From the NCBI GenBank assembly GCA_021604845.1, contig BQJT01000002.1, positions 2,495-66,494 on the forward strand: a stretch of DNA of 64,000 nt, written 5' to 3'. The notes beneath the pieces were generated by a model. It had not been told where the DNA came from. It saw only the letters and a program-made list of their open reading frames with translations, and ran no database searches. This document shows positions 9,837 through 52,438 of the stretch, piece after piece. How positions within the stretch are numbered: position 1 is the first letter of the stretch; every line of letters starts with the position of its first letter. Origin of the DNA: Cyclobacteriaceae bacterium (GTDB lineage Bacteria > Bacteroidota > Bacteroidia > Cytophagales > Cyclobacteriaceae). A program made the position numbers and the translations under genes.

Positions 9837-9859
9837 AAGGTAAAAGATTATTACCTTTT
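9835..9859 (+). terminator. AT-rich hairpin overlapping the integrase stop codon
   Basis: AAAAGGTAA (9835-9843) pairs with TTACCTTTT (9851-9859), a 9-bp stem with a 7-nt loop. It is weak and AT-rich. Confidence 0.35.
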
Positions 9860-12230: not shown

Positions 12231-12266
12231 AGTATTTTGAATAATTATGTGATTTATCTTTCTCTT

Positions 12267-13316: not shown

Positions 13317-13357
13317 CTGTTATCTATCAGGCCAATTGCACCCTGTAACATGTATAT

Positions 13358-13483
13358 TTATTTTTTAAGATTATTAAATATTTCTTTTAGCTCACTTATT
13401 CCTAGATATAAGATCTTCACGGAAATAATTGTAAAGAATACTGTTGTTAATAAAACAACTATGCCCCAAATAGTAGTCCACAT
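13358..13483 (-). CDS. 41-aa single-TM peptide (MWTTIWGIVVLLTTVFFTIISVKILYLGISELKEIFNNLKK), candidate symporter accessory subunit
   Basis: It is not in the ORF track because it is under 60 aa. Its ATG lies 7 nt after the symporter TGA on the same strand. It has one hydrophobic helix followed by a charged tail. Confidence 0.4.
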   Translation of the reverse strand: MWTTIWGIVVLLTTVFFTIISVKILYLGISELKEIFNNLKK

Positions 13484-13490
13484 AATTTGA

Positions 13491-14960
13491 TCATTTTTTT
13501 GCTTGAGTTTTTTGATATTTTGCAAATAGTGAACCAACTATCATACCTATTAGTGCCATCAAGAACCCACCCCAGCCAAACGCGGAAGCCCACTCATTTT
13601 TTAAATTTTCATTGATCACCAAATACAATAGCGGAGGTAAGGCTCCCAGAGTAAATGCCAGGTAGGCACCAAGTACCTGAGCTTTTTTCCAGTAGATACC
13701 GAGAACAATACAAACTAATGTACCTGGAAGAAAAATAGACCCGGTCATTTGCAGGTAAAAATAGAGGTAGCCCTCGATTTTATGAAAAAGTGACCACCAA
13801 ATAATGAAAATCATCACAACTGTTACCGTTATTCTGCTAATAAGGAGTTGCTTGTCGGAGTTAATTTCCTTGCCTGTTATTGCTTGTATGGCTATCCCCA
13901 CTATGTCCTGTGAAATAACTGAACTCCAGGAGTGTAGATAACTTGCATATGTTGACATTGAGGCAGCTAGTAAACCTGCAAAAATTAACCCGATTAAACC
14001 TTCTGGAATAATTGACTTTATTAAAAGTGGTAAGGCATCCAATCCATCAACAGGTTCAATAAAGTAGGCAAAAGCTATGATTCCCCAGAAAATTGGAAGT
14101 ACTGCTCTAAAAAAAAACATTAGCCCTGTCCATTTATAAATTTTCATCCCGGTACTAGAATCTTTTGATGAGAAAAGCCTCATAGCCAATGCTTGCCAAG
14201 CAACTAGTATTGCAGTCCATTGTAGTATCTGCCAAATTAGGAACCCAATACCAAACTCACTTTGAGTTATAGACGGAGAAAATGGATTCATTCCGGACTC
14301 GCCAAGTTCTGAGGTTACCGTATTAACTATATTATTCCAGCCCACTATAAATACACCATAGATTGTGATCAACACCATTCCAAAACTCAAGAGTACATAT
14401 TGAACGTAGTTGATAAAAATTATTGAAACCATACCCCCTAACAAGGTATGAATTAGAACAACAGTTAAGAGTACCACCATCGTAACCAAAACACTGCTTT
14501 CAGGAATACCACTTATTGTGTTTATGAATTTTGCTTCAATTCCGGGAAATACCCCAAAATTCAAAATACCACCAACTGCCATTAGTATCCCTGCATAAAA
14601 CCTAACTCCTTTACTAAACCTTCTGGAAAAAAACTCTGGAATAGTCATAATCTTCATTTCGAGAAGAGGTTTTATGATAATTCCTGTCTGCCCAAAAAAG
14701 AGGAAAACCAGTAAAGGTGGTAATGCAATGATCAAGCTGGAGAATCCAGTGTTGTACCCAAGTTCGGCATAGTAAACAAATGTGATAATACCGATTTCTG
14801 AGCACATCATGGATAATAACCCAAGATTGAACCCCATGGTCCTGTTGGCTACTAAGAAATCATCAATGCCTGATACAAACTTTCTGGCCAATAGCCCAGA
14901 GAATAGAACCAGTAAAATGTAAACAACAATAGTGGTTATATCGATCAGGTTCAAACTCAT
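13491..14960 (-). CDS. Sodium:solute symporter (SSS) family transporter
   Basis: 489 aa and highly hydrophobic, with about 12-13 TM segments. The N-terminal pattern LLARKFVSGIDDFLVANRTMG is typical of the SSS family. Confidence 0.88.
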   Translation of the reverse strand: MSLNLIDITTIVVYILLVLFSGLLARKFVSGIDDFLVANRTMGFNLGLLSMMCSEIGIITFVYYAELGYNTGFSSLIIALPPLLVFLFFGQTGIIIKPLLEMKIMTIPEFFSRRFSKGVRFYAGILMAVGGILNFGVFPGIEAKFINTISGIPESSVLVTMVVLLTVVLIHTLLGGMVSIIFINYVQYVLLSFGMVLITIYGVFIVGWNNIVNTVTSELGESGMNPFSPSITQSEFGIGFLIWQILQWTAILVAWQALAMRLFSSKDSSTGMKIYKWTGLMFFFRAVLPIFWGIIAFAYFIEPVDGLDALPLLIKSIIPEGLIGLIFAGLLAASMSTYASYLHSWSSVISQDIVGIAIQAITGKEINSDKQLLISRITVTVVMIFIIWWSLFHKIEGYLYFYLQMTGSIFLPGTLVCIVLGIYWKKAQVLGAYLAFTLGALPPLLYLVINENLKNEWASAFGWGGFLMALIGMIVGSLFAKYQKTQAKK

Positions 14961-15183: not shown

Positions 15184-15855
15184 ATGAAGACTAAAGCGCT
15201 TGATACGAAATATCAACCCATACCAGAGTTAGGGAGAAATTCTAACATGCCAGATAGATCCGAAAGAGAAATTTGGATCGAGTTTAAGCAAGGAAGCGAT
15301 TCGGCACTTTCATATATTTATAACAAGTATATAGATGTACTTTTCAACTATGGTTGTCAAATCAACAATAGTGAGCAACTTGTTCAGGATTGTATTCAGG
15401 ACTTGTTTATGGATTTAATAAGGTCAAGAGAACGACTAGCAGATGTTAATTCTATTAAATATTACTTGTTTACTTCTCTAAGGTGGAGGGTGTTAAAAAG
15501 TTTGAAAAAGGAGAGAAAATTTCTATCCAACGAATTCGACGGTACAACTGAAAAAGGGTTTGATATAATTAGTTCTCCGGAAGATAGAATGATCAATGAA
15601 CAACTTTCCAAAGAAAAACGAAGAATAATAACACTTGCTTGTCAAAAACTCACTAAAAAGCAACGCGAATGCATTTTGCTTTATTTTTATGAAGGATTTA
15701 CCTACAAACAAGTGGCAGAGATAATGGGGATGGGAAAGGTAAGGTCAGCTCGTGTAATGGTATACCGAGCATTGGACTCTCTACAGGCCTATTTAAAACA
15801 TGCCAAGGATCAACTAACAATTCTAACCTCTCTTCTAATCAGTACTTTTCTATAG
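15184..15855 (+). CDS. ECF-type RNA polymerase sigma-70 factor
   Basis: 223 aa as tracked; the real start may be Met22 at 15247. Region 2 is VQDCIQDLFMDLI. Region 4 is LTKKQRECILLYFYEGFTYKQVAEIMGMGKVRSARVMVYRALDSL. Confidence 0.85.
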   Translation: MKTKALDTKYQPIPELGRNSNMPDRSEREIWIEFKQGSDSALSYIYNKYIDVLFNYGCQINNSEQLVQDCIQDLFMDLIRSRERLADVNSIKYYLFTSLRWRVLKSLKKERKFLSNEFDGTTEKGFDIISSPEDRMINEQLSKEKRRIITLACQKLTKKQRECILLYFYEGFTYKQVAEIMGMGKVRSARVMVYRALDSLQAYLKHAKDQLTILTSLLISTFL

Positions 15856-16074
15856 TCAAATTTGAAATTTTTTGCATTTCGTCATTTTCCTTTGAATGAA
15901 TCACTTGAAGGGCTGAACCTTCTGTTCAATAGCTGCTTAATTATCAACTCTGGGTAGCTTCAATCAAGCAGTGTGATCATAAATATTTTTATTTTGTATC
16001 CTTTTTTATAGTAAAGGACTCTATTCAGTTAGAATGTCAATAAACCAAAAGAACGAAATCTAGGACCTTGACTC

Positions 16075-17100
16075 ATGAAGGATCTTTTACAAGATGAGTT
16101 TTTCATAAAATCTGTTTGCAATCCGGATCAGGAAGCCACAGACTATTGGAGACGGTGGCTGGAGCGAAACCCTGATAGGAAAGATGATTTTGAACTTGCA
16201 AGACAAGCCATATTGTCTATCGAGTATAAAAATTATAAAAAAATTCCGAAATCCGCATCTGAGCAAATGTTTGAAAACATAAGAGCATTCAAGCGCTTAA
16301 TAGATGAGAAGGAATCATTAGATGAATCAAATAATTTTTTGAGGCCATACACATCAAGAATACTAAGAGTTGCATCGGTGGTTGTTGTTCTTATTACAAT
16401 CTCATTCAGTTTGTACTATTTCGATTTTGGTATAAACAAGGATCAAGCCCATGCAAGCAATTTTAAGGTTGAGAAAAATACCCCGCATGGAGTAAAAAAG
16501 ACCATAATACTACCCGATGGTACTGTAGTAAAACTAAACTCCGGTAGCGAGCTTAAGTATCCAAGTCAGTTTATCAATGGTAAGAGGATGGTTGAGCTAC
16601 GAGGAGAGGCATTCTTTGATGTTGTTGAGGATAAGAGTCGACCTTTTATTGTAAAGACTAGGGATATCTACGCTCAAGTGTTAGGCACTTCATTTAACAT
16701 TCGAAGTTATCAGGACGAAGAAAACTCGGAAGTAGCGTTAATCTCAGGAAGGGTTAAAGTAAATGATTTCTTAGGGAATGAAATTTTATTGGAGCCTTCA
16801 GAGAAAGTAGTATTTTCTTATAAGAACGAAGAGCTTTATAAATCGAAGTTCAATGTACACATGGTTACAGGTTGGCTGGAAAATATATTAATTTTTGAAA
16901 AGTCGTCTATTGAACAAATTGCTGTTAAACTCGAACGATGGTATGGTGTTAAAATAGATTTTGATTTATCCAGTCCGATAAAAGGTAGTTACAGTGGTGA
17001 ATTCAAAGATGAACCTTTGAATGTAGTTCTTGACGGAATTGGATATGCTTCAGAGTTTGAATATTTAATTAATGGGAATCATGTTACAATAAAAAACTAA
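16075..17100 (+). CDS. FecR-family anti-sigma factor (single-pass membrane sensor)
   Basis: 341 aa with a central TM segment (ILRVASVVVVLITISFSLYYF). The FecR motif LRGEAFFDVVEDKSRPFIVKT is present. It sits between the ECF sigma and the SusC. Confidence 0.88.
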   Translation: MKDLLQDEFFIKSVCNPDQEATDYWRRWLERNPDRKDDFELARQAILSIEYKNYKKIPKSASEQMFENIRAFKRLIDEKESLDESNNFLRPYTSRILRVASVVVVLITISFSLYYFDFGINKDQAHASNFKVEKNTPHGVKKTIILPDGTVVKLNSGSELKYPSQFINGKRMVELRGEAFFDVVEDKSRPFIVKTRDIYAQVLGTSFNIRSYQDEENSEVALISGRVKVNDFLGNEILLEPSEKVVFSYKNEELYKSKFNVHMVTGWLENILIFEKSSIEQIAVKLERWYGVKIDFDLSSPIKGSYSGEFKDEPLNVVLDGIGYASEFEYLINGNHVTIKN

Positions 17101-17226
17101 ATCTGATGAAGAAAATAGACACAAGTTAAAAAGCCGGCTTTTACACCGGCTCCGATCCTGGCAGCAGATCTCGACAATATGCAGCGAGGATCTTTTAATT
17201 AAAAAAGAAATTAAACATTTAAACTT

Positions 17227-20200
17227 ATGAAAAATAAAGTACTAAGAAAAATCTTGGTTATGACAAGGTTCGGCTTTTATGGTTTCTTAATACAATGTGT
17301 TTCTACTAGTTTTCTAATAGCAGATAATGGGTTAGCTCAGCAAAAAAGTATTTATGAGGTTTACCTTTCTTTAGAAATACAGGAAGAAAGATTAGTCGAT
17401 ACTTTTGATCTAATAGAAGACAATACGGGCTTTAAATTTGCCTATAACGATTACTTTGTTGAAGAGAACCACATTGTAAGTCTGAAAGCGACTTCTGCTT
17501 CCTTAGGAACTATACTTTCGGAAATTTCAAAACAAACAAATTTAAAGTTTAGAAGGATTAACGAGAATATACATGTTAATAAACGTAAAATATTTGAACC
17601 TAAAGTAACTGAGGAAATTAAGCAAATCCAGCCCATTCCGGTAAGTGGACAAGTAATTTCTTCAGATGACAGTATGCCGCTTCCTGGAGTAAATGTCATT
17701 ATAAAGGGGACAACCAATGGTACAGTAACTGATTTAGATGGACGTTACCAAGTCGAAGTGCCTGGTAATGAAACGGTACTGGTATTTAGTTATGTAGGGT
17801 TTGTTAAGCAAGAGGTTGTGGTTGGCAACCAGGTAGAAATTAATGTATCGCTAAGCCCGGATTTAACAACATTAGGCGAGTTGGTAGTTATTGGCTATGG
17901 CTCAGCAAAGAAAACGGACTTAACAGGTGCCGTAAGTACACTTCCCGGTGGGACTATTTCAAAAAGGCAGACAATCAAGGCATCGGAGGCCTTACAAGGA
18001 GCAATTCCCGGTGTAACCGTAAATAGAACAGATGGTCGGCCAGGAGTTGATCCACAAATAAGGATAAGAGGGGTAACAACCATTGGTAACAGTAATCCAT
18101 ACGTACTGATTGATGGAGTGCCAGGAAACCTGAATAGCGTCAATCCTTATGACATTGAAAATATTAGTGTTTTAAAAGATGGCGCTTCTGCTGCAATTTA
18201 TGGTGCTAAAGCAGCTGCAGGTGTTATATTAATAACCACTAAGCGGGGTAAATCCGGCCAACTTGACCTTAGTTATACATTCGAGTACGGAGTACGAAAA
18301 CCAACCAGAACTCCAAACTATGTTGGTGCTGTGGATTACATGACCTTTATAAACGAAAGAGATTGGAATGACAGTGGAAATATTGGTTCTGAGCACCCAA
18401 CCTTTGAGGAAAGTCTAATAGAAGATTACCCTAATTTACATGCTGGGAATTCAGATTTATATCCAGATACTGACTATTCAACTTTCTTTAATGATTATGC
18501 CCCCACGCAGAGACATTCCTTAAGTATAAATGCAGGCACTGATAAGCTTAGTTCATTACTGTCTATGTCATACAGTTTGAGTGATGGTTTTATGGACACA
18601 CAGGAATATGAAACACTAACCCTAAGAAGTAATAACGATATAACATTTAGTGAAATAGTGTCTGCCCATTTTGATATTAGCTATCAAAATTTTAGGGATA
18701 ATAGAGAGAATGGGTACGGGATGGTAAATCTTTTAAGAAGGCCTCCCATTGGGTTGCCTTTCTGGAGTGATGGGAGAGCCGCTTTAACACCATACTATGG
18801 AGCAGATATGGCAAGGTCAATCAACGGGGGAGTTAATAAATTATGGAACGACGAAATTCGAGGGAGGCTGTCTATTGATGTGAAACCTGCAAAGGGATTA
18901 ACTCTTACGGGACTGGTTTCTCCGTATTTCAGTTTTTATAGAGGGAAAGCACATCTAAAGAAAGTACCGCTTTATCGCTTGGAAGAGCCAGACATTGCTG
19001 GCTATGCACCGTCTGCCGCCACTACCAAGCTGGTAGAAACCAGGAATAACAGCAATTCGGTTATTGCACAGTTCTTCGCGAATTATTCAATTACTCTTTC
19101 CAATGATCATAACATTGACGCTATGGCTGGATACGAGTATAACTATTTATACAGTGAAAATCTTTCAGCCTCTCGTGACCAGTATAGTTTGGATGATTAT
19201 CCATATTTGGATTTGGGGCCACTTGATCTTAGAGACAATAGCGGTAATGCAACAGAACTTGCATCAAGTTCTTTTTTTGGAAGGGTTATGTACAATTATA
19301 AAAGCAAATACCTGATGCAAGTAAATGTTAGATATGACGGGTCGTCTCGTTTCCATTCCGACTATCGATGGGGATTGTTTCCATCAGTGTCAGCAGGTTG
19401 GGTTCTATCTGAGGAATCATTTATGGAAAATGTAGGGCCAGTATCTTTACTTAAACTTCGTGGTTCTTATGGTTCATTGGGGAACGACAGGATCGGAAGT
19501 AATTATCCCTATCAATCTAAAATTGCATTTAGTAACGCTTTATTGTTCTCAGGCCAAACCCCCGCTTCTTTTCAAACTGCTTATGTTCCGCAATACGCGA
19601 TTAGTGACATTTCGTGGGAGACAACTAATTCCTGGGATATTGGGTTAGATGTTAATTTTTTTGACAATAGGCTTCAATTAACTGCAGATTATTTTGATAA
19701 AACGACAAGTGATATGCTACTGGACCTTGAGATTCCAAGCTACATTGGCTTGAGTAATCCAAGTCAGAATGCAGGAGAAATGGAAACAAAGGGATGGGAA
19801 TTTGGAATTCAGTATGGGAACAATATTGGAGATCTATATTACACCATATCCGGAAATATGTTCGATTCGAAGTCGACTATGGGAGACTTGGAGGGGACAG
19901 AGTTTCTTGGAAGCCAGGTTATTAAGGAAGGAAGCGAGTTTAATGAGTGGTACGGTTACAGGACAGATGGGTTATTTCAAACACAGACCGAAGTGGATAA
20001 TTCGGTCACTCTTAGGGAAACTACCAAACCTGGAGATATTAAGTATTTGGATTTGAGTGGGCCCGAAGGATCTCCAGACGGAATTATAAATCAATATGAT
20101 CTCACCTTGCTTGGGGGTTCACTACCTCGATTACAATATGGCGGTAGTATCAATCTTGAGTACAAGGGACTAGATTTATCCATAATTTTCCAAGGAGTTG

Positions 20201-20604
20201 GTAAAAGGAATAGTTATAAGGATTTACAAATGGTTATACCAGATCATTTTGGCGTGGCTGATTTCGTTTATGGGAATACCTGGAGTCATTATAATGATGC
20301 TGAGACCAACAGAAATGCACCCTATCCAATAGGTGGAGAGTTAGGCCGAAGCCACAATTATGAAACATCGGATTATTGGTTGTTTAATGGAAGCTATTTC
20401 AGGCTCAAGAATGTGATTTTGGGTTACAATCTTCCCGATCAAATAATTCAAAAAGTTGGAATGAAAAATTTACGAGTTTCTGTCAATCTTTCTGATCTAT
20501 TTTCAATAGATAATTATCCTTCCGGTTATGATCCTGAACAAGGACCTGGCAGGGGGTATTTTATTACAAAAGCTTATATTTTAAGCTTATCCGCTCAATT
20601 TTAA
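17227..20604 (+). CDS. SusC-type TonB-dependent transducer with an N-terminal signalling extension
   Basis: 1125 aa. The STN-like extension is LKATSASLGTILSEISKQTNLKFRRINENIHV. It also has GQVISSDDSMPLPGVNVIIKGTTNGTVTDLDGRYQV, the plug ISVLKDGASAAIYGAKAAAGVILITTKRG and the barrel end ILSLSAQF. Confidence 0.92.
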   Translation: MKNKVLRKILVMTRFGFYGFLIQCVSTSFLIADNGLAQQKSIYEVYLSLEIQEERLVDTFDLIEDNTGFKFAYNDYFVEENHIVSLKATSASLGTILSEISKQTNLKFRRINENIHVNKRKIFEPKVTEEIKQIQPIPVSGQVISSDDSMPLPGVNVIIKGTTNGTVTDLDGRYQVEVPGNETVLVFSYVGFVKQEVVVGNQVEINVSLSPDLTTLGELVVIGYGSAKKTDLTGAVSTLPGGTISKRQTIKASEALQGAIPGVTVNRTDGRPGVDPQIRIRGVTTIGNSNPYVLIDGVPGNLNSVNPYDIENISVLKDGASAAIYGAKAAAGVILITTKRGKSGQLDLSYTFEYGVRKPTRTPNYVGAVDYMTFINERDWNDSGNIGSEHPTFEESLIEDYPNLHAGNSDLYPDTDYSTFFNDYAPTQRHSLSINAGTDKLSSLLSMSYSLSDGFMDTQEYETLTLRSNNDITFSEIVSAHFDISYQNFRDNRENGYGMVNLLRRPPIGLPFWSDGRAALTPYYGADMARSINGGVNKLWNDEIRGRLSIDVKPAKGLTLTGLVSPYFSFYRGKAHLKKVPLYRLEEPDIAGYAPSAATTKLVETRNNSNSVIAQFFANYSITLSNDHNIDAMAGYEYNYLYSENLSASRDQYSLDDYPYLDLGPLDLRDNSGNATELASSSFFGRVMYNYKSKYLMQVNVRYDGSSRFHSDYRWGLFPSVSAGWVLSEESFMENVGPVSLLKLRGSYGSLGNDRIGSNYPYQSKIAFSNALLFSGQTPASFQTAYVPQYAISDISWETTNSWDIGLDVNFFDNRLQLTADYFDKTTSDMLLDLEIPSYIGLSNPSQNAGEMETKGWEFGIQYGNNIGDLYYTISGNMFDSKSTMGDLEGTEFLGSQVIKEGSEFNEWYGYRTDGLFQTQTEVDNSVTLRETTKPGDIKYLDLSGPEGSPDGIINQYDLTLLGGSLPRLQYGGSINLEYKGLDLSIIFQGVGKRNSYKDLQMVIPDHFGVADFVYGNTWSHYNDAETNRNAPYPIGGELGRSHNYETSDYWLFNGSYFRLKNVILGYNLPDQIIQKVGMKNLRVSVNLSDLFSIDNYPSGYDPEQGPGRGYFITKAYILSLSAQF

Positions 20605-20615
20605 AGCCGAAGAAG

Positions 20616-22322
20616 ATGAAAAACAATATATTATATATCCTATTAATAGGAGCTTTGACTTTTTCATGTGAATCCTTAGATCTGGATCCACTGTCAGAAG
20701 CTTCCGGTGATAATTGGTTAACTAGTGATCAAGAGGTTAGAATGTCTTTGGATTACCTGTATGATATAAAATTCTGGGATCCTAATCCTACATTAACAAG
20801 CGTAATAAATCCCAGATGGCTGGACTCTTGGTCAGATGACCTAACTAGTAGAAATAATCTTAATACCATGACTAATGGTAGCCTTGATGGCAATTCGCGA
20901 TATGTTGTCGAATCCTGGAGTCTCTACTATCAGGCAATTGCTTCTGCAAACCTGATAATAGAGGGGTTAGAGGAAACCAATGCTGAGTTTGATGAGGTCC
21001 AATTAAAACAATACATAGGTGAAGCAAGGTTTGTAAGGGCAGCTCAGTATTCAAAACTAATATTCCACTGGGGAGATGTACCTTATCTTGAAAAGAATGT
21101 GGATATCGATGAAGCTTTTGCTATGGGAAGGACGGATAAGTTTGAGATACTGCAATCTATTTTTGATGATTTCGACTATGCAGCAACAAACTTGCCCACT
21201 TCCTATTCTAACGTGAATTATATAACCAAAGGAGCCGCACTGGCCATGAAAGCCCGTATTGCATTATATATGGGGGAATACGCCGTTGCAAGGGATGCTG
21301 CCAAGGCATGCATGGATCTACAGGTTTATGAATTATATCCTGATTTTGGTGAATTGTTCTTATCTAGTACAAAGAATTCCATTGAAACAATTTTCGCTAT
21401 TCCCAGGTCTACATCGTTAAATCTAAATGTTTCGTTTTGGGGAACTACTTATGAACCCTTGTCCAGAATTAGAGGCGCTGCCTATGTCCAACCCTCGTGG
21501 GAGCTTTTTAGTGCTTTTCTTTGTAAAGATGGTTTACCAATTGATGAATCACCATTGTACGACCCCCAAAACCCATTTGAAAACCGCGATCCCAGGTGTA
21601 ATGAAACCATTGTTGAGCATGGTACACAGTTTGGGTATTGGAAATACGAGCCACATCCTGATACCATGCGGGTTGTTGACGTAAGGACCGGTCAATTGGT
21701 TGACAATACCAATAACAGGGCAGTCATTCAGTGGGGATCATTCAATGGATTGGCATGGAGAAAAGGAATTGACCTAGATTGGTATGATGATAACCTAACC
21801 GATCCAGATCATAGGATCATTCGCTATGCTGATGTAGTGCTAATTTATGCAGAAGCTATGATTGAACTGAATACTATTGATCAGTCTGTGCTTGATGCAA
21901 TGAATTCAGTACGTGCCAGGGCATATGCAAATGACATTTATCCGGACATCACGGTAACTGATCAAGAAGAATTACGGAAGATTTTGAGAATAGAGCGACG
22001 GATGGAATTTGCCTTTGAAGCTCTGAGATACCCTGATATTATACGATGGAATTTAGCAGAGAAAGTATTGAATGCCACGGACTATGGATTACTTGACCCA
22101 GATGAATTAAGAGAGAAAGTGGTTCAGCAAGGTCTTTGGTTTATGCCTGGTGTACCAGAGGTCGATGAAGATTGGGTAGCCGACTTCAGCCCAATGTTTG
22201 ATCAGGGTTTAATTAAATTATTGTCTGTAAGATCATTTGATGCTTCAAAACATTATTTGTGGCCCATTCCAACCAAGGAATTATTAATTAATGCGAATAT
22301 GACGCAGAATCCAGGCTATTAG
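20616..22322 (+). CDS. SusD/RagB-family nutrient-binding outer-membrane lipoprotein
   Basis: 568 aa with lipoprotein signal MKNNILYILLIGALTFSC. It lies 11 nt after the SusC gene. The C-terminal YLWPIPTKELLINANMTQNPGY is typical. Confidence 0.9.
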   Translation: MKNNILYILLIGALTFSCESLDLDPLSEASGDNWLTSDQEVRMSLDYLYDIKFWDPNPTLTSVINPRWLDSWSDDLTSRNNLNTMTNGSLDGNSRYVVESWSLYYQAIASANLIIEGLEETNAEFDEVQLKQYIGEARFVRAAQYSKLIFHWGDVPYLEKNVDIDEAFAMGRTDKFEILQSIFDDFDYAATNLPTSYSNVNYITKGAALAMKARIALYMGEYAVARDAAKACMDLQVYELYPDFGELFLSSTKNSIETIFAIPRSTSLNLNVSFWGTTYEPLSRIRGAAYVQPSWELFSAFLCKDGLPIDESPLYDPQNPFENRDPRCNETIVEHGTQFGYWKYEPHPDTMRVVDVRTGQLVDNTNNRAVIQWGSFNGLAWRKGIDLDWYDDNLTDPDHRIIRYADVVLIYAEAMIELNTIDQSVLDAMNSVRARAYANDIYPDITVTDQEELRKILRIERRMEFAFEALRYPDIIRWNLAEKVLNATDYGLLDPDELREKVVQQGLWFMPGVPEVDEDWVADFSPMFDQGLIKLLSVRSFDASKHYLWPIPTKELLINANMTQNPGY

Positions 22323-22350
22323 ATTCTGATCTTATTCGTAATGATTCCAG

Positions 22351-22399
22351 CTGGTATTGAGTACTTGTAAGGTAAACGGTTTCAGGTACCCAATACCAG
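22351..22399 (+). terminator. Long stem-loop directly after SusD (terminator, attenuator or processing site)
   Basis: CTGGTATTGAGTAC (22351-22364) pairs with GTACCCAATACCAG (22386-22399), 13 of 14 bp, with a 21-nt loop. No clear U-tract follows. Confidence 0.4.
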
Positions 22400-22451
22400 T
22401 TATAAATGTACACGGATCTACTCCGTTTAGTCTTTCAATAAAAATCTTAAA

Positions 22452-25139
22452 ATGATAAAGAGAAAAACCAATAAGATTGGGATCAGAATTCTTGTTCCCA
22501 TAATAATCCTGGGAATCGGTGCTAGTGTGTTTTTTATATATAAATCCGATGGAGATAATATCTATTTCTCATGTGCTGCTGACAATGACCTTTACAGGGT
22601 AATGACTTCCACCGGTAAGGAATATCAACGGTTTTCGGATCCCAATCAGGCAATTGAAGCAGCTCCTATAGGATCAGGAGTCTTAATTCTAGCGGATAAC
22701 TATCCAGAGCCTACAGACATCACACCTGAGGCATATGAGAAAGCGGAATCGAAAGACCTAAAACTTTTTGTTGAATATCCGAGTTTTGTACCTGGCCTAA
22801 AAATTGGTTCACCGAAGGATGGAGAGGTCTGGGAACGGGCAGTAGTTGCAACGAATAGTTTCGAACCTGAACTATCGGAATTTCGAATATTACAGTTAAG
22901 TGACTATAAGGTTTTGCCAATTGAGTCTGATGGTATATCATTAAAGCCAGCTGATTTGGTTCTTGCCCGCATCGCCGGATATAACAAGGCTGTTTATGGA
23001 CTTCCAGATACCACAAGACAACTATTGGTAGAGGTTAAAGAGAGAAACATTCTGTTAGCTACTACAAAATTAAGCCAGTTTGTTACTGCACGTTATGGTC
23101 CCAGCTCGGCGTGGGAGCCGATTTGGAACAACGTATTAGCCTGGCTGAGTAGATCTTCAAATGTGACATTGCCTAAATGGACACCTACAGTTCGCACTTC
23201 GTTTACGAAAGATGAGGAATTACCCGAAAACGCTGAAATCCATGCGCTCCAACGCGGGTTGAAATGGTATAAAGGTTTCTTATTAGATGAGCCATGGCTG
23301 GTAAAATCAAATAAGTTGGGATGGGAACGAATCGGGGGAAGCCCAGTCATCCCTGCCAGAAAACCCGATGAACCTTATGGGGATGGCAGTTTTGGGGTTC
23401 TTGAAGGGCATATTTCCTATATTATGTCAGATGGTAGCCAACCTAGAAGGAACTTGCCAAGAGCAGATTGTAACGCTGAAACGGCTATGTCATATGCTCT
23501 TGGTTCTTTGACGGAGAATAACCAGGAATATTCTAAAATTTCGCTAAACATAATGGATTATCTTTTCAAAACATCAGGTATGTTTCAGGGACCTCCAACA
23601 AAACCATCGGATGGGTGGTTTGGCTTTTTTGGCTGGTATGAAGGTGGTAGTGATTACGGTAACGGTATTGATTTATATTGGGGGAATGATAACTCCAAAG
23701 CTTTGATTGGCACCATGGTCACGGCTGCCGCTTTGAAAACAGATCAATGGGACGAAAATCTACTTGCAGGAATATTAACCAATTTCCGAACCTCAGGTCC
23801 GGAAGGATTTCGCAATGGTATAGCGTTAAGAAAACATCAATTACAGGAGAAGGGTTGGGAGTACTATGCGAAGAATCGGATGATATTACCATGGCCTCAG
23901 CGTGAAGCATGGGCATGGGCCAATTATTTGTGGTTATACGATAAAACCAATTATAAACCATTGCTTGAGCATGCACGAAGTGCGATACGATTAACCATGG
24001 AAAAGTATCCTGATAACTGGTTGGTTGCCTTACACCAATTGCAAATGGAACGGGGAAGAATGCTACTTCCATTGGCATGGCTGGTTCGAGTAGATGATAC
24101 TCCGGAACATCGCCGGTGGCTTTACCAGGTAATAGATGACATGATAGAGCGAATGGATGAATCAGGGGCAATTCAGGAAGAAATGATTGCTACTAGTTTA
24201 ACTTCCAATGAAGATTATGGAGGGAGTGAGGCATCCATAGTACACCTTGATGGTGATCCCTGTGTGGATGTTTTCTATGCAATGGCTCCTGCGTTCCTTG
24301 GTATGCACGAAGCGGTCGTTGCTACAGACGACCAGCGTTTAAAGGAACTTACTAACAAAATGGCGGAATTTTTAGTGCGAATCCAATTGCGTAGTGAGAA
24401 ACACGAGGATATTGATGGTGGTTGGTTTCGTGCTTTTGATTATATAAACTGGGACTATTGGGGTGCAAATGGTGATACGGGGTGGGGGGCCTGGTGTTCC
24501 GAGACAGGATGGCTGCAATCCCATGTTGTAGCTACTTTGGCAGCCAGAAAATTAAAGACCTCACTCTGGGATCTAACCAGTGAAAGTGATATCGCCAGGA
24601 ATTTCGATCGATATCGCCGGGAAATGCAAATTGACAAAGCTGTGGATATCTGGAAAAACTCACCGCCTCTTGATATTGCACATATCGGCATGAGTGTAGT
24701 TCCAGAACTTAGCCAACAACCCAGCCGCCGACATCCAGGTAATGGTGCAGAAGGTTTAGTAGATGGACTTTTCGGTCCTGCCAACCATAGTAATGACCGA
24801 TGGTATGGCTTTCCGAATTCCACTATGGAGGCTGTAGTGGATATAAGGACAAACTCTATAGCGCACTACATCGGCGCCCGGTTCCTGCATGATGAACAAA
24901 ATGGAATTTATTTCCCTAAACAATTAGAAGCGCTTGCTTTTCAGGAGGAGGAATGGAAGGTAGTGGGGAAAATTGATATTGAAGAACCTGAAAATAAGCA
25001 GTCCCCCGTAGCGAAAGAGTTCGGGATCAAATTAGACGATATTATGACACCGGAGCTAAAACTTCGAATCGTAAATCGACCGGCGGCAAAAGATCCGGGC
25101 CCTACCTATATGTTTATGGATGAACTGATCACTCATTAG
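22452..25139 (+). CDS. Large membrane-anchored or secreted protein of unknown function; C-terminal discoidin/CBM-like region
   Basis: 895 aa with an N-terminal TM segment IGIRILVPIIILGIGASVFFIY. I recognise no catalytic family. The C-terminal GAEGLVDGLFGPANHSNDRWYGF resembles the start of an F5/8-type-C (discoidin) module. Its position in the locus suggests a glycan-active enzyme. Confidence 0.55.
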   Translation: MIKRKTNKIGIRILVPIIILGIGASVFFIYKSDGDNIYFSCAADNDLYRVMTSTGKEYQRFSDPNQAIEAAPIGSGVLILADNYPEPTDITPEAYEKAESKDLKLFVEYPSFVPGLKIGSPKDGEVWERAVVATNSFEPELSEFRILQLSDYKVLPIESDGISLKPADLVLARIAGYNKAVYGLPDTTRQLLVEVKERNILLATTKLSQFVTARYGPSSAWEPIWNNVLAWLSRSSNVTLPKWTPTVRTSFTKDEELPENAEIHALQRGLKWYKGFLLDEPWLVKSNKLGWERIGGSPVIPARKPDEPYGDGSFGVLEGHISYIMSDGSQPRRNLPRADCNAETAMSYALGSLTENNQEYSKISLNIMDYLFKTSGMFQGPPTKPSDGWFGFFGWYEGGSDYGNGIDLYWGNDNSKALIGTMVTAAALKTDQWDENLLAGILTNFRTSGPEGFRNGIALRKHQLQEKGWEYYAKNRMILPWPQREAWAWANYLWLYDKTNYKPLLEHARSAIRLTMEKYPDNWLVALHQLQMERGRMLLPLAWLVRVDDTPEHRRWLYQVIDDMIERMDESGAIQEEMIATSLTSNEDYGGSEASIVHLDGDPCVDVFYAMAPAFLGMHEAVVATDDQRLKELTNKMAEFLVRIQLRSEKHEDIDGGWFRAFDYINWDYWGANGDTGWGAWCSETGWLQSHVVATLAARKLKTSLWDLTSESDIARNFDRYRREMQIDKAVDIWKNSPPLDIAHIGMSVVPELSQQPSRRHPGNGAEGLVDGLFGPANHSNDRWYGFPNSTMEAVVDIRTNSIAHYIGARFLHDEQNGIYFPKQLEALAFQEEEWKVVGKIDIEEPENKQSPVAKEFGIKLDDIMTPELKLRIVNRPAAKDPGPTYMFMDELITH

Positions 25140-25209
25140 CACTAAAGACTGGGACAATAATGATTATTGACAAACTATATTTCGTTTACTGTTCTAACAA
25201 CCTATCAGA

Positions 25210-26634
25210 ATGAAGAATACAAAAAGGAATCGAAGAAACTTTATAAAACTAAGTGGTTTAACAGGTGCCAGTTTAGTAGGTGCTGATTTAATATCATTGG
25301 CTAGTGGAAAGGATGCAAATCCTGAATCCGATAATATTGAGCAGTCTAAAAGGCATAATCAGAAAGTCAACATGTCAGGATATGCTGCTCCCAGAATTGA
25401 AACCGTTGGTATCGGGTTTATCGGGCTGGGAAGAGGGTTAACCCATGTGTCAACTACCAGTTTGCTAGAAGGAGTTGAAATCAAAGGATTATGTGACTTA
25501 CTTCCCGATAAGATTTCAAGGGCTAAAAAGAGACTGGAAGGTAGTGGGTTTAACCCTCAGATATATACTGGAAACGAGGACGCATGGAAAGAAATGTGTA
25601 ACAGGGATGATATTGACCTTATCTATATTGCTACTCCCTGGGACTTACATGCACCTATGGCGGTCTATGCTATGGAACATAATAAACATGTAGCCATTGA
25701 AGTTCCGGCGGCCCTTACTATCGATGAATGCTGGCAACTTGTGGAAACATCTGAAAAGACCAGAAAGCACTGTATGATGGTTGAAAACACCTGTTATTCA
25801 GAATTTGAGCTACTTACCCTAAACTTGGCGAGACAAGGTTTTTTTGGAGATATTGTACACTGCGAAGGAGCCTATATCCACCCCTTAATGGACCTTATAT
25901 TTAATAAGAACGTGTGGGATATGTGGAGATTGAAAGCATCCATTGGTGAGATTGGAAACCTTTACCCGACCCATGGTTTAGGACCAGTTTGTCAGGTTTT
26001 GGATATTAATCGTGGAGATAAAATGGATTTTATGGTTTCGGTATCTGGTAAAGATTTTCAGAAGAATCAAAGAGCCAAAGAGCTGGCTGAGAAGGATGAA
26101 GTTTACAGGCAATATGTAGACAAACCATACAATGGAAACATGAACACTTCAATAATCCGAACAGCAAAAGGACGAACCATCATGTTGCAATACGATATTA
26201 CTTCATCTAATGTGTATTCCAGAATTCATAGGATAAGTGGCACAAAAGCAGCAGCGCTAGGTTGGCCAAGACCAGCAAGGATTTCCGTTGGCCATAAATG
26301 GTTAACCACTGAAGAATTTGAATCTGTCAAAAAAAAATATGAACCTCCTATAATTAAAAAACTTGGGGAAATATCGAAAGAAGTTGGGGGTCATGATGGT
26401 GCAGATTTCCTAATGAATTGGCGTTTAATAGATTGCCTACGTAACGGTTTACCGCTCGATCAGGACTGCTATGATGCTGCATCTTGGAGCTCAATTGTAC
26501 CATTAAGTAAGCAGTCGGTGGCCAGCCGTTCCGGTTCGGTTGAAATACCGGATTTTACTAACGGAGCATGGAAAGAAAATCATCCAGTGGACCTCTCATT
26601 AGGTCAAGGTGGAACTACTATGCTAAGAAATTGA
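25210..26634 (+). CDS. Gfo/Idh/MocA-fold NAD-dependent enzyme with Tat signal, GH109-like (alpha-N-acetylgalactosaminidase family)
   Basis: 474 aa with Tat motif NRRNFIKLSGLTGASLVGA and Rossmann start VGIGFIGLGRG. The size and the Tat-plus-Gfo/Idh/MocA architecture match GH109 proteins. Confidence 0.75.
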   Translation: MKNTKRNRRNFIKLSGLTGASLVGADLISLASGKDANPESDNIEQSKRHNQKVNMSGYAAPRIETVGIGFIGLGRGLTHVSTTSLLEGVEIKGLCDLLPDKISRAKKRLEGSGFNPQIYTGNEDAWKEMCNRDDIDLIYIATPWDLHAPMAVYAMEHNKHVAIEVPAALTIDECWQLVETSEKTRKHCMMVENTCYSEFELLTLNLARQGFFGDIVHCEGAYIHPLMDLIFNKNVWDMWRLKASIGEIGNLYPTHGLGPVCQVLDINRGDKMDFMVSVSGKDFQKNQRAKELAEKDEVYRQYVDKPYNGNMNTSIIRTAKGRTIMLQYDITSSNVYSRIHRISGTKAAALGWPRPARISVGHKWLTTEEFESVKKKYEPPIIKKLGEISKEVGGHDGADFLMNWRLIDCLRNGLPLDQDCYDAASWSSIVPLSKQSVASRSGSVEIPDFTNGAWKENHPVDLSLGQGGTTMLRN

Positions 26635-26657
26635 TTGACGTCAGCTCAATTAATCGC

Positions 26658-29312
26658 GTGAAAATCTGCTGTTCATTTTTAGCCTGGAGATTTGTTTTAG
26701 TATTACTACCTTCCGGGCTTTTAGGTTGTATGTCGGATAGAACAGGGAATGTGTTGTTAACTGAAAAAGCAGTTGAACGACTAGATTTAAAACAAAACTC
26801 ATTCTTTGCATTTGCCGAACTCCGGGATAACCCTCTCAAATGGTTTGATTCAATTCCCAAGGAGAAAGTTTCGGAAAGGAGTTACCGGGGTGTTTTTGAA
26901 ATGTCTGCTCAACCAGGTGAATATTATGTTTATCAGGTTGGGGTATGTGCAATCAGATCATCTGTTAAAAACCTGAAAGTGGTCTTAACTGATTTAAAGG
27001 ACAATCACGGTAACGTAATCCCTGAAGGAACAATGACTTGTTTTAACACAGGTGGCATAAATAGTCAGGGAGAACCATTTACTAAAGAAATACAAATTGA
27101 ACAAGGTCGATTACAGCCATTATGGATAGGTATTGATCTTCAAGGAGTAGAGATAGGTTCCTACTCAGGGTCCGTTTCGATTATCGCTGAGGACGAGCAA
27201 CAGCAGATACCTATTCAACTAAGGGTTCAAGGAGAAGTGGTTTCTAATCATGGATATAAGAACGACGATCGATTATCCCGCTTAAATTGGCTGAACTCAA
27301 TAAAGGGTATAAATGAGGAGGTTACCAAAGGTTTTATGCCGATTGAAATTGTCGATAATAAAGTAAGTATTTTGGCACGTACTCTGGATATTTCAGAAAG
27401 TGGACTTCCTTTATCTATTACTAGTTTTTTCAGCCCGTCTAACGAATCGTTCCAGGAAAAGGGCCAGCCCATTGTTAAGAAGCCCTTCAGGTTTATTATT
27501 GAAAAAGTGGATGGGGAAATTATTCACTTACAGCCGGGCTCATTAAATCTAATAAAGCATACGCCATCAAAAGTTGTCTGGAGTGTTCTGAACACTTCTA
27601 AATTATGTGACCTAACCGTTATTGGTCACATGGAATTTGATGGTTATGTGGAATATAAGTTAACCATTTCGGCGAAGATGCCCTTGAAAATAAAAGACAT
27701 TCGACTTGAAATTCCTGTGGAGAAAGATAAATCCGAATATATGATGGGACTGGGTCGTGAAGGAGGCTTGAGACCCACTGATTGGCATTGGAAATGGGAT
27801 GTACAGAAAAATCAGGACATGCTTTGGGTTGGAGCAGTGAATGGAGGACTAGGAATTAAATTAAAAGCTAAGAACTACAGACGACCTTTAGTAAATATAT
27901 ACTATGAATTTTCACCATTAATTATGCCATTATCATGGGATAATAAAGGTGAAGGGGGAATAGAAATGGTTGAAACATCCGGGGGTATTAATATAAGTGC
28001 TTATTCTGGAAGCAGAGAGTTAGCGCCTGGCGAACAATTGGATTTCAATTTTGAATTACTGATAACACCATTCAAGTTGATCGATAAAACGAAAAAATAT
28101 GGAGATCGCTATTATGCAAATCATCTTTCCAAATCATTTGAGAAAATTAAACTTGCAAAGCAGCTAGGTGCAAATATCATTGATGTACATCATGCAGAAG
28201 ACATTTATCCATTTATAAATTATCCATATCTGGAGGATTGTTCGGAGGAATTGACCCAATTAGCAAAGAATGTACACGATAATAATTTGCGGATGAAAGT
28301 GTACTATACTACAAGACTGTTGACAAAAAACGCACCTGAATTCTGGGCCTTTAGAAGTCTCAACAATGAGATCATTTTTCCTGGCCCGGGCAATGAAACA
28401 CGCACCGAAGCCAGATACCCAAACGGTCCACATCAATGGTATATCGAAAATCTTAGGGAGAAATACATCCCTGGATGGTTTGTTAACGTTGATGGGGGAA
28501 AATTCAAGGATGAATTGGATTTGTCAATTGTAACTACCCCTGATAGCCGCTTAAACAATTTTTACATCGCCGGACTCGATTGGATGTTAAGCAACATGGA
28601 CATTGATGGAGCTTATATCGATGATACCGCCCTGGATCGTATAGCGCTACAACGGGCAAGGAAGGTGATTGATAGCTACAAATCAAATGGGAGGTTGGAC
28701 TTGCACAGTTGGAATCATTTCCATCGATGGGCAGGATATTCAAATAGCTTGAATTTGTACATGGATTTGTTGCCTTATTTTGATCAGCTTTGGATTGGGG
28801 AAGGAAGGGACTATGACCGTGATCCGGATCATTGGCTGGTAGAAGTTTCGGGTATTCCCTTTGGTTTAAGTAGTCAAATGCTCAAAGATGGCGGAAATCC
28901 CTGGCGCGGTATGGTATATGGAATGACCAATCGAGCCGGCTGGAAAGGCAGTACTCCTCCTACTGCTATTTGGCAATTCTGGGATACTTACAAGATTCAA
29001 AACAAAGAGATGACTGGATATTGGGATAGAAACAATCCTATAACCTGCAATAATAAGATGATAAAAGCCTCCACTTACAAAGGTAGCACAGAATCGATTG
29101 TTTCTGTGGCTAACTGGAGCGACAAGGATCAACGGATAATATTGAATATTGATTGGGATAAGTTAGGTCTTGATCCTGTAAAGTCAGATATTTTTATTCC
29201 TGGAATTCCAGATTTTCAGGATCAACATATGCTTGTTTCATTAAAGGATTTAACTGTCCCGGCAAACAAGGGCTTCTTAATAATACTGAAAAATAGATCT
29301 GAAAAGATATGA
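26658..29312 (+). CDS. Large lipoprotein with a glycoside-hydrolase-like TIM-barrel C-terminal half (family uncertain)
   Basis: The tracked ORF starts at ATG 26568 and overlaps the upstream gene by 67 nt. The in-frame GTG at 26658 gives VKICCSFLAWRFVLVLLPSGLLGC, a signal peptide plus lipobox. The C-terminal half (IDVHHAEDIYPF...MDIDGAYIDDTALDR) looks like a GH-like TIM barrel. Confidence 0.55.
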   Translation: MKICCSFLAWRFVLVLLPSGLLGCMSDRTGNVLLTEKAVERLDLKQNSFFAFAELRDNPLKWFDSIPKEKVSERSYRGVFEMSAQPGEYYVYQVGVCAIRSSVKNLKVVLTDLKDNHGNVIPEGTMTCFNTGGINSQGEPFTKEIQIEQGRLQPLWIGIDLQGVEIGSYSGSVSIIAEDEQQQIPIQLRVQGEVVSNHGYKNDDRLSRLNWLNSIKGINEEVTKGFMPIEIVDNKVSILARTLDISESGLPLSITSFFSPSNESFQEKGQPIVKKPFRFIIEKVDGEIIHLQPGSLNLIKHTPSKVVWSVLNTSKLCDLTVIGHMEFDGYVEYKLTISAKMPLKIKDIRLEIPVEKDKSEYMMGLGREGGLRPTDWHWKWDVQKNQDMLWVGAVNGGLGIKLKAKNYRRPLVNIYYEFSPLIMPLSWDNKGEGGIEMVETSGGINISAYSGSRELAPGEQLDFNFELLITPFKLIDKTKKYGDRYYANHLSKSFEKIKLAKQLGANIIDVHHAEDIYPFINYPYLEDCSEELTQLAKNVHDNNLRMKVYYTTRLLTKNAPEFWAFRSLNNEIIFPGPGNETRTEARYPNGPHQWYIENLREKYIPGWFVNVDGGKFKDELDLSIVTTPDSRLNNFYIAGLDWMLSNMDIDGAYIDDTALDRIALQRARKVIDSYKSNGRLDLHSWNHFHRWAGYSNSLNLYMDLLPYFDQLWIGEGRDYDRDPDHWLVEVSGIPFGLSSQMLKDGGNPWRGMVYGMTNRAGWKGSTPPTAIWQFWDTYKIQNKEMTGYWDRNNPITCNNKMIKASTYKGSTESIVSVANWSDKDQRIILNIDWDKLGLDPVKSDIFIPGIPDFQDQHMLVSLKDLTVPANKGFLIILKNRSEKI

Positions 29313-29397: not shown

Positions 29398-30207
29398 TTG
29401 CTTAATATGATATTTTCAGATCTAAGTTATGAGATAATAAATAAGCAAGCTGAAGGTAATATTTCTGCGGTTTTACCCCTGGGAGCCATTGAACAACATG
29501 GACCTCATTTGGCAGTATCTACCGATACCAGTCTGGTTACGAGAATTGCTAGTCAGGCTGAAAAATTACGACCTGACAAAATATTACTGTGCCCCACGCT
29601 ACCTTTTGGTTCCAGTCATCATCATTTACAATTTGGAGGCACATTGAGTTTGTCAATCACCACTTACACCCAGGTTGTAGTAGATTTGGTAGAATCGTTA
29701 GTACAGAATGGCTTTAACAGAATAATTCTATTAAACGGGCATGGTGGTAACATCGTACCGGGTAAACAAGCACTTGCTGTTTTGAACGATAAGAACGACA
29801 AGACAAGTACATCTAATATTGTATTAGCAACATATTGGGAATTGGCTGGGGATGCGTTTACCAAGGGTAGCCTAATGGAAAGCCCAGCGCTTAGTCACGC
29901 TTGTGAGTATGAAACAAGCTTGCTTCTGCATCTATTTCCTGAAAAAGTAAACATGAAAAAAGCTGAACGAGCTACCAGACCAGACCCTAACTGGTATATA
30001 CCATATGAGGAAGAAAGTCCGTACAGGGGTGTTAGCACTCACAAGCCCACGCAGTTTATCTCGAATAATGGGAGTAGTGGAGAGCCTCAACTAGCTACTA
30101 CAGAAAAAGGCAAATATTTGTTTGATCATGCTGTACAATGCCTGGTTAAATTCGTTGATTCTTTTTGTAACTGGCCGTTCCTAATAAATTTAAAAAGCAA
30201 TGAATAA
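29398..30207 (+). CDS. Creatininase-family amidohydrolase
   Basis: The motif LPLGAIEQHGPHLAVSTD is the family signature. The likely true start is the ATG at 29407; the tracked start at 29398 is TTG. Confidence 0.78.
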   Translation: MLNMIFSDLSYEIINKQAEGNISAVLPLGAIEQHGPHLAVSTDTSLVTRIASQAEKLRPDKILLCPTLPFGSSHHHLQFGGTLSLSITTYTQVVVDLVESLVQNGFNRIILLNGHGGNIVPGKQALAVLNDKNDKTSTSNIVLATYWELAGDAFTKGSLMESPALSHACEYETSLLLHLFPEKVNMKKAERATRPDPNWYIPYEEESPYRGVSTHKPTQFISNNGSSGEPQLATTEKGKYLFDHAVQCLVKFVDSFCNWPFLINLKSNE

Positions 30208-30301
30208 ACTAGAAATTCGACCGAATCTGGTTCTTAAAATTATTTCTTTAAACCATATTATGGGGTCCATGGATTTAATGTTAGCCTGTTAATATTTTAA
30301 A

Positions 30302-32391: not shown

Positions 32392-32468
32392 GCTGAATTG
32401 CACCAAAGTATTACCTTATAACCTTTATAGCAATTAAAACAAGTATTAAAAAACATCTGAGCAGTCCA

Positions 32469-33392: not shown

Positions 33393-33462
33393 TGCTTATG
33401 ATTAAAATGCTGGAGGGGTACTGAAAAAATTGTTTCTATAGGTGGTATTTATTTGAAAGAAC

Positions 33463-39204: not shown

Positions 39205-39250
39205 ACCAAGTATAGGTAGGAATAATGATTATTAACTAATTAACAAGGAT

Positions 39251-52436: not shown

Positions 52437-52438
52437 AA

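Follow-up and report, generated by a model that had tools for sequence, protein, structure and literature searches.

The closest characterised system to the gene cluster described here is the polysaccharide utilisation locus (PUL) BT4240-50 of Bacteroides thetaiotaomicron, which combines an extracytoplasmic function (ECF) sigma factor and its anti-sigma factor with a SusC/SusD pair and a GH109 enzyme, BT4243-GH109, that has been demonstrated to be an exo-α-N-acetylgalactosaminidase (PMC11992087). In B. thetaiotaomicron, an N-terminal extension of a SusC-like protein couples the sensing of glycans to the anti-sigma factor (PMC2709373). Genomic islands that are integrated at tRNA genes, the Islander type, have also been described (PMC4383910). 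Both the sigma/anti-sigma design of regulation and metabolic cargo borne on islands are, hence, already known in principle. Here, we analysed a stretch of 64,000 nucleotides from a Cyclobacteriaceae bacterium (Bacteroidota; GenBank assembly GCA_021604845.1, contig BQJT01000002.1, positions 2,495 to 66,494 of the forward strand), which is referred to as the window in the following and to which all positions relate. We consider it probable that the window carries a trans-envelope-signalling PUL for an N-acetylhexosamine-rich glycan, which is equipped with its own catabolic operon and forms the cargo of an island inserted into a tRNA-Met gene.

The core of the locus consists of seven open reading frames (ORFs) that are read in the same direction on the + strand between positions 15184 and 29312, with the boundaries already assigned to them in an initial annotation of this DNA. 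The annotation had described a sigma factor, a FecR protein, an extended SusC and a SusD, followed by three large exported proteins, and all seven ORFs were confirmed in this order, with domain matches for all but the 895-aa protein. The ECF sigma factor (15184-15855) contains the Sigma70_r2 (PF04542) and r4_2 (PF08281) domains and scores 73.6 bits against TIGR02937, the cutoff of which is 42.9. The following FecR-type anti-sigma factor (16075-17100) possesses the FecR and FecR_C domains (PF04773, 66 bits; PF16344, 61.9 bits), and its translation displays a hydrophobic segment at about residues 95-115, ahead of the FecR domain. The SusC-type TonB-dependent transporter (17227-20604) reaches 875.6 bits with TIGR04056 (cutoff 368) and 55.8 bits with the TIGR04057 signature. 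It has an STN-like N-terminal extension of about 100 residues, as the CarbopepD_reg domain starts at residue 139, compared to residue 39 in an unregulated SusC encoded in the left flank of the window, and an STN match is on record for the orthologous SusC of a related locus (L002, see below). The gene of the SusD-family lipoprotein (20616-22322; PF07980, 148.9 bits; lipobox TFSC) follows that of SusC at a distance of 11 nt. An adjacent SusC/SusD pair with linked carbohydrate-active enzymes, as is required of a PUL, is present. Scans for sigma-70 promoters and terminators between 14.9 and 44.3 kb yielded no more candidates than expected from shuffled sequence; such a scan does not cover the promoters of Bacteroidota.

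Among the three exported proteins, the middle one is the best defined. It is predicted to be an NAD-dependent GH109 glycosidase with a Tat signal (25210-26634, + strand; twin-arginine motif RRNF) and matches the GH109 C-terminal domain PF21252 at 118.5 bits and the NAD-binding Rossmann domain PF01408 at 49.2 bits. Alignments of the protein with the solved GH109 enzymes of Akkermansia (AmGH109, 6t2b; E 6e-98) and Elizabethkingia (NagA, 2ixa; E 1e-61) span almost its entire length, and its identity to a characterised N-acetylgalactosaminidase is about 50%. It shares with 6t2b and 2ixa the Rossmann NAD domain, the C-terminal domain, the twin-arginine signal, the motif LYPTHGLGP and the histidine of the catalytic loop, but differs from both in that this loop reads GGHDG instead of GGHGG. 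As judged from these sequence features, the predicted assignment to GH109 is solid, and the initial annotation, which had proposed a Tat-exported, GH109-like and NAD-dependent enzyme, was right in this respect.

The main new item of the region is the exported 895-aa protein encoded directly upstream (22452-25139, + strand), which belongs to an uncharacterised enzyme family and for which no match was obtained in Pfam or NCBIfam. At least 557 homologues were found in Bacteroidota, Planctomycetota, Verrucomicrobiota and other phyla, which are labelled as "hypothetical" or "discoidin domain-containing" in their sources; an exhaustive search with clustering at 50% identity yielded 297 clusters at E<=1e-30 and 802 at E<=1e-10. 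Structural modeling with AlphaFold (AF2), based on an alignment of 43 sequences, resulted in a confident model (pLDDT 88.3, pTM 0.83) that suggests an N-terminal α/β domain, an (α/α)6 barrel and a C-terminal CBM32-like β-sandwich. In Foldseek searches the C-terminal domain matched the CBM32-like module of BT0459, and the barrel produced loose matches to epimerases of the N-acyl-D-glucosamine 2-epimerase (AGE) superfamily, GH9 and GH76, the best of them with target-normalised TM-scores of 0.58-0.67 at an identity of 10-13%; judged from the model, the family is therefore predicted to be without a close solved relative. In structure, the barrel comes closest to AGE-superfamily enzymes such as cellobiose 2-epimerase, YihS and mannose isomerase, from which the 895-aa protein differs in being exported and about twice as long, in its additional N-terminal and CBM32-like domains, and in lacking a family match at the sequence level. 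Arg, Trp, Asp and Glu are frequent among the invariant columns of the family.

The genomic neighbourhoods of the 895-aa family point to a role in the breakdown of N-acetylhexosamine-rich glycans. Relatives adjoin genes for GH20, GH84, GH89, PL8, GH27 and Gfo/Idh/MocA proteins in several phyla, and in a distant lineage (L003) the homologue lies next to genes for an AGE, a SIS protein and an SSF transporter. Among the relatives (P0002-P0120, L003, L006, L090-L092), the discoidin/CBM32-like tail is often present, and in some cases the 895-aa-type unit forms part of a larger protein of 1,700-2,500 aa. Across several phyla, the family is repeatedly located near an AGE epimerase, a SIS protein of about 590 aa and glycosidases active on N-acetylhexosamines. 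Thus, it might be speculated that the 895-aa proteins constitute a new family of carbohydrate-active enzymes, composed of an α/β domain, an Arg/Trp-rich barrel and an optional CBM32-like domain, that acts on N-acetylhexosamine-rich or acidic glycans, that the neighbouring AGE, MurQ-like SIS and transporter genes represent a new degradation route, and that integrases targeting tRNA-Met move whole modules of sensing, uptake and catabolism among marine Bacteroidota without conjugation genes. We offer this wider proposal tentatively, as it is somewhat more likely to fail than to hold.

The third exported protein (ORF 26568-29312, + strand) matches PF19543 ("GH123_N", formerly DUF6067) with 924.7 bits. 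Its likely start is a GTG codon at position 26658, which results in a lipoprotein signal (MKICC...LLGC) and a length of 884 aa, in agreement with the 872-880 aa of its homologues; the protein is strongly conserved across Bacteroidota (55-64% identity). The roughly 885-aa lipoprotein with a barrel resembling those of glycoside hydrolases, as the initial annotation had it, is thus upheld as regards length and lipoprotein signal, but the label given to its barrel needs correction. Neither sequence nor profile searches returned a significant match in the PDB, and the profile matches to the deep-sea enzymes 8k2f and 8k2j (E 0.1-0.3) are limited to the N-terminal sandwich. A Foldseek search with a low-confidence model ranked a GH36 galactosaminidase and GH97 enzymes first over the whole chain, and the likeness to the GH123 β-N-acetylgalactosaminidases 5fqe and 5l7r covers 168-187 N-terminal residues only, at 15-18% identity. 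We therefore regard the protein as putatively glycosidase-like, with a predicted GH-like TIM barrel, and as GH123-like in its N-terminal β-sandwich only. An outright identification as a GH123 enzyme was rejected, as no homology to the catalytic TIM barrel is apparent in the sequence and the structural likeness is N-terminal, which, given the low confidence of the model, is itself a weak result. The resemblance to 5fqe, 5l7r and the related 8k2f and 8k2j accordingly concerns the N-terminal β-sandwich, and the DUF6067 protein differs from GH123 in having no significant sequence match that spans the GH123 catalytic domain. A literature search for DUF6067 returned no paper. It had been asked in the initial annotation whether family profiles would assign the three exported proteins to functions outside of glycan metabolism; no such function was assigned, and all three look carbohydrate-active, for which in the case of the 895-aa protein and the DUF6067 lipoprotein only the predicted folds and the gene neighbourhoods speak.

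The locus had been considered complete at position 29312. The SusC/SusD and sigma/anti-sigma part of this description stands, but the boundary was drawn too short, and a catabolic tail reaching to about 41.5 kb belongs to it. Beyond 29312, the string of + strand genes continues with twelve more genes, up to 41529-42530, that are separated by gaps of no more than 219 nt. As indicated by family matches, a first group of genes (29398-36064, + strand) encodes, in this order, a creatininase-family amidohydrolase, a 3HCDH-type dehydrogenase, an enolase-superfamily enzyme, a dihydrodipicolinate synthase (DHDPS)-type aldolase, a second enolase-superfamily enzyme of the dipeptide-epimerase/MLE subgroup and two Amidohydro_2 proteins. 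These are followed by the genes for an AGE, a SIS protein, an NAD epimerase-fold protein and a transporter of the major facilitator superfamily (MFS) of the anion:cation-symporter type (36171-41529, + strand; family matches and synteny with L002), and the string ends with a 296-aa protein for which no family match was found. The AGE protein exceeds the equivalog cutoff of NF052547 (638.5 bits versus 600). The N-terminal half of the SIS protein (585 aa) resembles N-acetylmuramic acid 6-phosphate (MurNAc-6-P) etherase, MurQ, with scores under the cutoffs; the matches of the SIS, aldolase and enolase proteins are all far under the curated cutoffs. Upstream of the core, a Metallophos phosphoesterase gene (10019-11362, + strand; Pfam), the product of which is 62% identical to that of a gene within the L002 locus, is probably a member of the locus as well, and a divergent group of accessory genes (11481-14960, - strand; Pfam, NCBIfam) encodes a short-chain dehydrogenase/reductase (SDR), a polysaccharide deacetylase and an SSF transporter.

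Two metagenome-derived relatives of the locus, L001 and L002, the proteins of which are 58-84% identical to those of the window, show the locus and its catabolic tail as what appears from sequence comparison to be one conserved unit. L001 comprises genes for SusC/SusD, the 895-aa protein, GH109, DUF6067, a creatininase, RidA, 3HCDH and an enolase-superfamily protein, and its creatininase/3HCDH/MR_MLE run is syntenic with the window. L002, from a metagenome-assembled genome (MAG) of Chitinophagaceae, starts with genes for a sigma factor, FecR, SusC, SusD, two copies of the 895-aa protein and GH109, and continues with a metallo-β-lactamase fold protein, Metallophos, AGE, SIS, epimerase and MFS; here, the AGE/SIS/epimerase/MFS block is syntenic and 61-84% identical. 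As these gene sets are shared with L001 and L002, the string beyond 29312 is taken to be part of one unit. In the stretch 17162-21221 of L001 (68% identity), six small unannotated ORFs separate the DUF6067 and creatininase genes, and the creatininase gene is split into pieces of 113 and 97 aa. An integrase gene is located upstream of the L001 locus; the L001 contig (53.7 kb) had no match among the 120 listed homologues of the integrase described below. A search of the literature for loci combining GH109 and GH123 returned nothing on the gene set of the window.

The locus resides on the first of two tandem islands in the 3' end of a tRNA-Met gene. The only tRNA gene in the window, as detected by ARAGORN, is that of tRNA-Met (62906-62979, - strand), and an Rfam scan likewise reported a tRNA only. 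A direct repeat of 106 nt, which consists of the 3' 45 nt of tRNA-Met and a downstream terminator-like hairpin, is present at the left junction (attL, 8345-8450, with a displaced tRNA fragment) and at the right junction (attR, 62845-62950, overlapping the intact gene). The two copies are 94% identical and differ at 6 of the 106 positions, the 45-nt tRNA part being identical up to GAGCC. The attL copy lies 169 nt upstream of a full-length tyrosine integrase gene (8619-9836, + strand) with the three domains Arm-DNA-bind_5, Phage_int_SAM_5 and Phage_integrase. A third copy of the repeat at 52367-52472 (62% identity) is directly followed by a truncated integrase gene, the product of which matches the full integrase from residue 256 to 405 with an identity of 89%; this decayed middle junction (52367-52935, + strand) marks the start of an older island. 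Island A (8451-52366, 44 kb) therefore carries the locus described above, and island B (52473-62844) a second one. Most of the tRNA part of the middle repeat and the first 255 residues of the truncated integrase seem to have been lost in a single deletion. Island B is therefore probably immobile on its own.

The composition of the islands deviates from that of their surroundings, with GC contents of 0.395 (island A) and 0.386 (island B) versus 0.44 and 0.43 in the flanks, and a GC content at third codon positions (GC3) of the SusC/SusD genes of 0.32-0.35 and 0.29-0.32 in the islands versus 0.49-0.51 in the flank. Pfam and NCBIfam scans of the island ORFs of at least 100 aa, the range to which the scans were confined, revealed no relaxase, coupling, type IV secretion, mobilisation or phage family. 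Within this range of ORFs, the islands do not qualify as an integrative conjugative element (ICE) or as a mobilisable element, and the integrase is the sole mobility gene detected in island A. The earlier view of a locus within a tRNA-integrated island that carries an integrase only is thus borne out by the att repeats, the integrase and the deviating GC and GC3, with the qualification that "integrase only" holds for ORFs of at least 100 aa.

The integrase belongs to a large family of marine Bacteroidota, the closest matches in genomes being found in Cyclobacteriaceae MAGs (67-68% identity), and its nearest relatives stem from marine, free-living Bacteroidota; no close relatives were identified in viral contigs. 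When 80 homologous integrase loci were screened for the 3' fragment of tRNA-Met within 400 nt upstream of the integrase, the fragment was present in 62, while the cargo was unrelated. In the listed loci the fragment lies about 170-200 nt upstream of the integrase, as it does in the window. The eleven loci that were compared by tblastx had only the integrase in common with the window, and the most similar integrase (81% identity) is accompanied by unrelated small genes. In 6 of the 80 loci, a SusC gene was located within 10 kb on the downstream side of the integrase, and in 9 of the 80 on the upstream side; polysaccharide loci are, therefore, an occasional rather than a preferred or typical cargo of this integrase family. 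In one locus (L027), a complete tRNA-Met gene (9773-9846) instead of a fragment is located just upstream of the related integrase. In another (L009), a tRNA fragment (6763-6807) and a tRNA-Met gene (16671-16744) that is 100% identical to that of the window bracket a segment of about 10 kb with the integrase, which suggests a small island at the same tRNA-Met target.

Based on gene content, gene order and domain assignments, the following mode of action might be proposed. A fragment of the glycan would engage SusD and SusC, and the N-terminal extension of SusC would pass a signal on to the anti-sigma factor by way of its periplasmic FecR domain, upon which the ECF sigma factor would be released and direct the transcription of susC and the downstream genes. 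The 895-aa protein with its (α/α)6 barrel and CBM32-like domain, the periplasmic GH109 and the DUF6067 lipoprotein would dismantle an N-acetylhexosamine-rich glycan, with GH109 taking off terminal N-acetylgalactosamine (GalNAc) in an NAD-dependent reaction. The MFS and SSF transporters would then bring in the products, and the AGE, the MurQ-like SIS protein and the set of dehydrogenase, enolases, aldolase and amidohydrolases would channel them into central metabolism. GalNAc is a plausible component of the substrate. The initial annotation had suggested a GalNAc-containing glycan of animal or algal type, with reference to mucin-type substrates; GalNAc remains plausible by way of GH109, but the suggestion drew on one enzyme family and a rule derived from gut Bacteroides, and other N-acetylhexosamine polymers would fit equally well. 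For the catabolic tail, a sialic acid-type pathway (NanL/NanE/NanT-like) and an oxidative uronate pathway were both considered but not adopted, as the aldolase, enolase and epimerase-fold matches lie far under the cutoffs.

Several points weigh against the reading as a signalling PUL for an N-acetylhexosamine-rich glycan on a tRNA-Met island, some of them concerning its function and some its mobility. As to regulation, the STN match of the SusC extension (23 bits, E 7e-5) is under the Pfam cutoff of 28.4, and in L001 the same enzymes occur in a locus that lacks the sigma/anti-sigma pair, so that the regulator appears to be exchangeable and not fixed to the enzyme set. The model of the DUF6067 protein is poor (pLDDT 64.6), and as for two of the three exported enzymes no characterised family member was found, the substrate rests mainly on GH109. 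Were the GH109-like protein a sugar oxidoreductase of the Gfo/Idh/MocA type, for example in a route by way of 3-keto-glycosides, the GalNAc assignment would lose its base. Its fold and NAD-binding domain are indeed common to many dehydrogenases, and weak NCBIfam matches to glycoside 3-dehydrogenase and levoglucosan dehydrogenase were obtained; however, these score 27-50 bits against cutoffs of 650-750, and the GH109 C-terminal domain, the near-full-length alignment to both solved GH109 enzymes and the retained loop histidine render an oxidoreductase very unlikely. A stronger contender is a glycan of microbial envelopes or exopolymers, containing N-acetylmannosamine (ManNAc), MurNAc or an amino-uronic acid and maybe linked to peptide or phosphate, in place of an animal or algal GalNAc glycan, in which case GH109 and the DUF6067 protein would act on N-acetylhexosamine linkages other than the mucin-type α-GalNAc. 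The AGE, which lies above the equivalog cutoff for the interconversion of N-acetylglucosamine and ManNAc, and the likeness of the SIS protein to MurNAc-6-P etherase would fit such a substrate, as would the enolase-superfamily gene that scores best with the dipeptide/N-acyl-amino-acid epimerase subgroup, the polysaccharide deacetylase, creatininase-type amidohydrolase and Metallophos phosphoesterase of the locus, and the marine, free-living origin of the nearest integrase relatives. In the distant lineage L003, moreover, the 895-aa protein, AGE, SIS and transporter occur together without GH109. On the other hand, the SIS, aldolase and enolase matches are those that fall far short of their curated cutoffs, the window GH109 shares about half of its residues with a characterised N-acetylgalactosaminidase, and relatives of the 895-aa protein also adjoin GH89, PL8, GH84 and GH27, families typical of animal glycan breakdown. 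We regard an envelope or exopolymer glycan as rather unlikely, albeit as the most serious competitor to the substrate proposed here.

The points concerning mobility relate to the junctions. Of the tRNA part of the repeat, no more than about 12 nt are left at the middle junction; island A may therefore be unable to excise alone, and the excisable unit may be islands A and B together. Furthermore, neither an empty tRNA-Met site nor a second context of the island was found in metagenome contigs or by a look-up of flank proteins. The exact att/tRNA junction pattern had no match in the metagenome contigs, and the look-up of flank proteins for an empty site retrieved nothing other than a second assembly of this organism (L088 and L089; Logan, DRR328265), which is 100% identical to the window and the contigs of which end at positions 8430 and 62952, at or inside the att repeats. 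It might thus be argued that the locus is a resident chromosomal region that is now inherited vertically and does not spread as a unit, the repeats and integrases being relics of old insertions. The truncated integrase of island B and the decayed middle junction are in line with this, as are the mismatches between attL and attR, the lack of a detected excisionase, relaxase or transfer gene, and the finding that related integrases show no enrichment of polysaccharide loci on their downstream side. However, the integrase of island A is complete and contains all three domains, attL and attR agree throughout the tRNA part of the repeat, and a GC3 gap of about 0.15-0.2 between the SusC/SusD genes of islands and flank has still not been levelled. 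In addition, the identity of 60-84% between proteins of the locus and those of the Chitinophagaceae MAG looks high, provided that the host is a relative of the Cytophagales. Taken together, a mere relic appears unlikely, slightly more so than an envelope glycan as substrate, and we favour the locus as cargo of a tRNA-Met island.

Outside the locus, island B contains a second set of sigma, FecR, SusC and SusD genes (53138-60006, + strand; domain matches), so that the repetition of the regulatory architecture noted in the initial annotation was found again. The sigma factor ORF of this set comprises only 150 aa, with a weak and partial match to region 2. Downstream of the set lie an alkaline phosphatase gene (60103-61197) and a gene for a transmembrane acetyltransferase that resembles NagX (61489-62382). 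In its distal part (44244-52066), island A encodes a 983-aa fusion of ThuA, glucose-sorbosone dehydrogenase, PKD and cytochrome c, an 824-aa protein with β-propeller lactonase and phosphoesterase parts, and a 691-aa TonB-dependent receptor. In the left chromosomal flank (923-8225), a separate SusC/SusD pair without sigma/anti-sigma genes and with a GC3 of about 0.5 provides an internal contrast for the island genes; it adjoins genes for GH95 (seen in L088), a TetR regulator and a phosphodiesterase. The right flank, as followed in the L088/L089 assembly, runs into the housekeeping GTPase gene era.

The region provides a bounded example in which sensor, regulator, outer-membrane importer, enzymes and cytoplasmic catabolism are located between the att sites of a simple tRNA island. 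Such a package would be a concrete route by which glycan-use traits could be spread among environmental Bacteroidota. The 895-aa and DUF6067 families are sizeable, are families for which we found no characterised member, and recur with N-acetylhexosamine-degrading genes; both represent good targets for biochemistry.

In comparison with known systems, the locus shares with BT4240-50 the combination of an ECF sigma/anti-sigma pair, a SusC/SusD pair and GH109. It differs from the system of B. thetaiotaomicron in that it lacks the M60-like peptidase, the GH2 enzyme and the GalNAc kinase and instead comprises the 895-aa protein, the DUF6067 lipoprotein and the twelve-gene catabolic tail including the AGE. 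A further difference lies in its setting, as the nearest relatives of its integrase are from marine, free-living and not from gut bacteria, and in the sub-threshold STN match of its SusC. Mobile elements are also the carriers of the seaweed polysaccharide loci of gut Bacteroides, which are borne on ICEs; in contrast to these, no conjugation or mobilisation genes were detected in the window islands within the range of ORFs scanned. The islands rather resemble those of the Islander type, with an integrase gene next to a displaced 3' fragment of the tRNA gene, the intact tRNA gene at the far end, an arrangement in tandem, and metabolic cargo of deviating composition.

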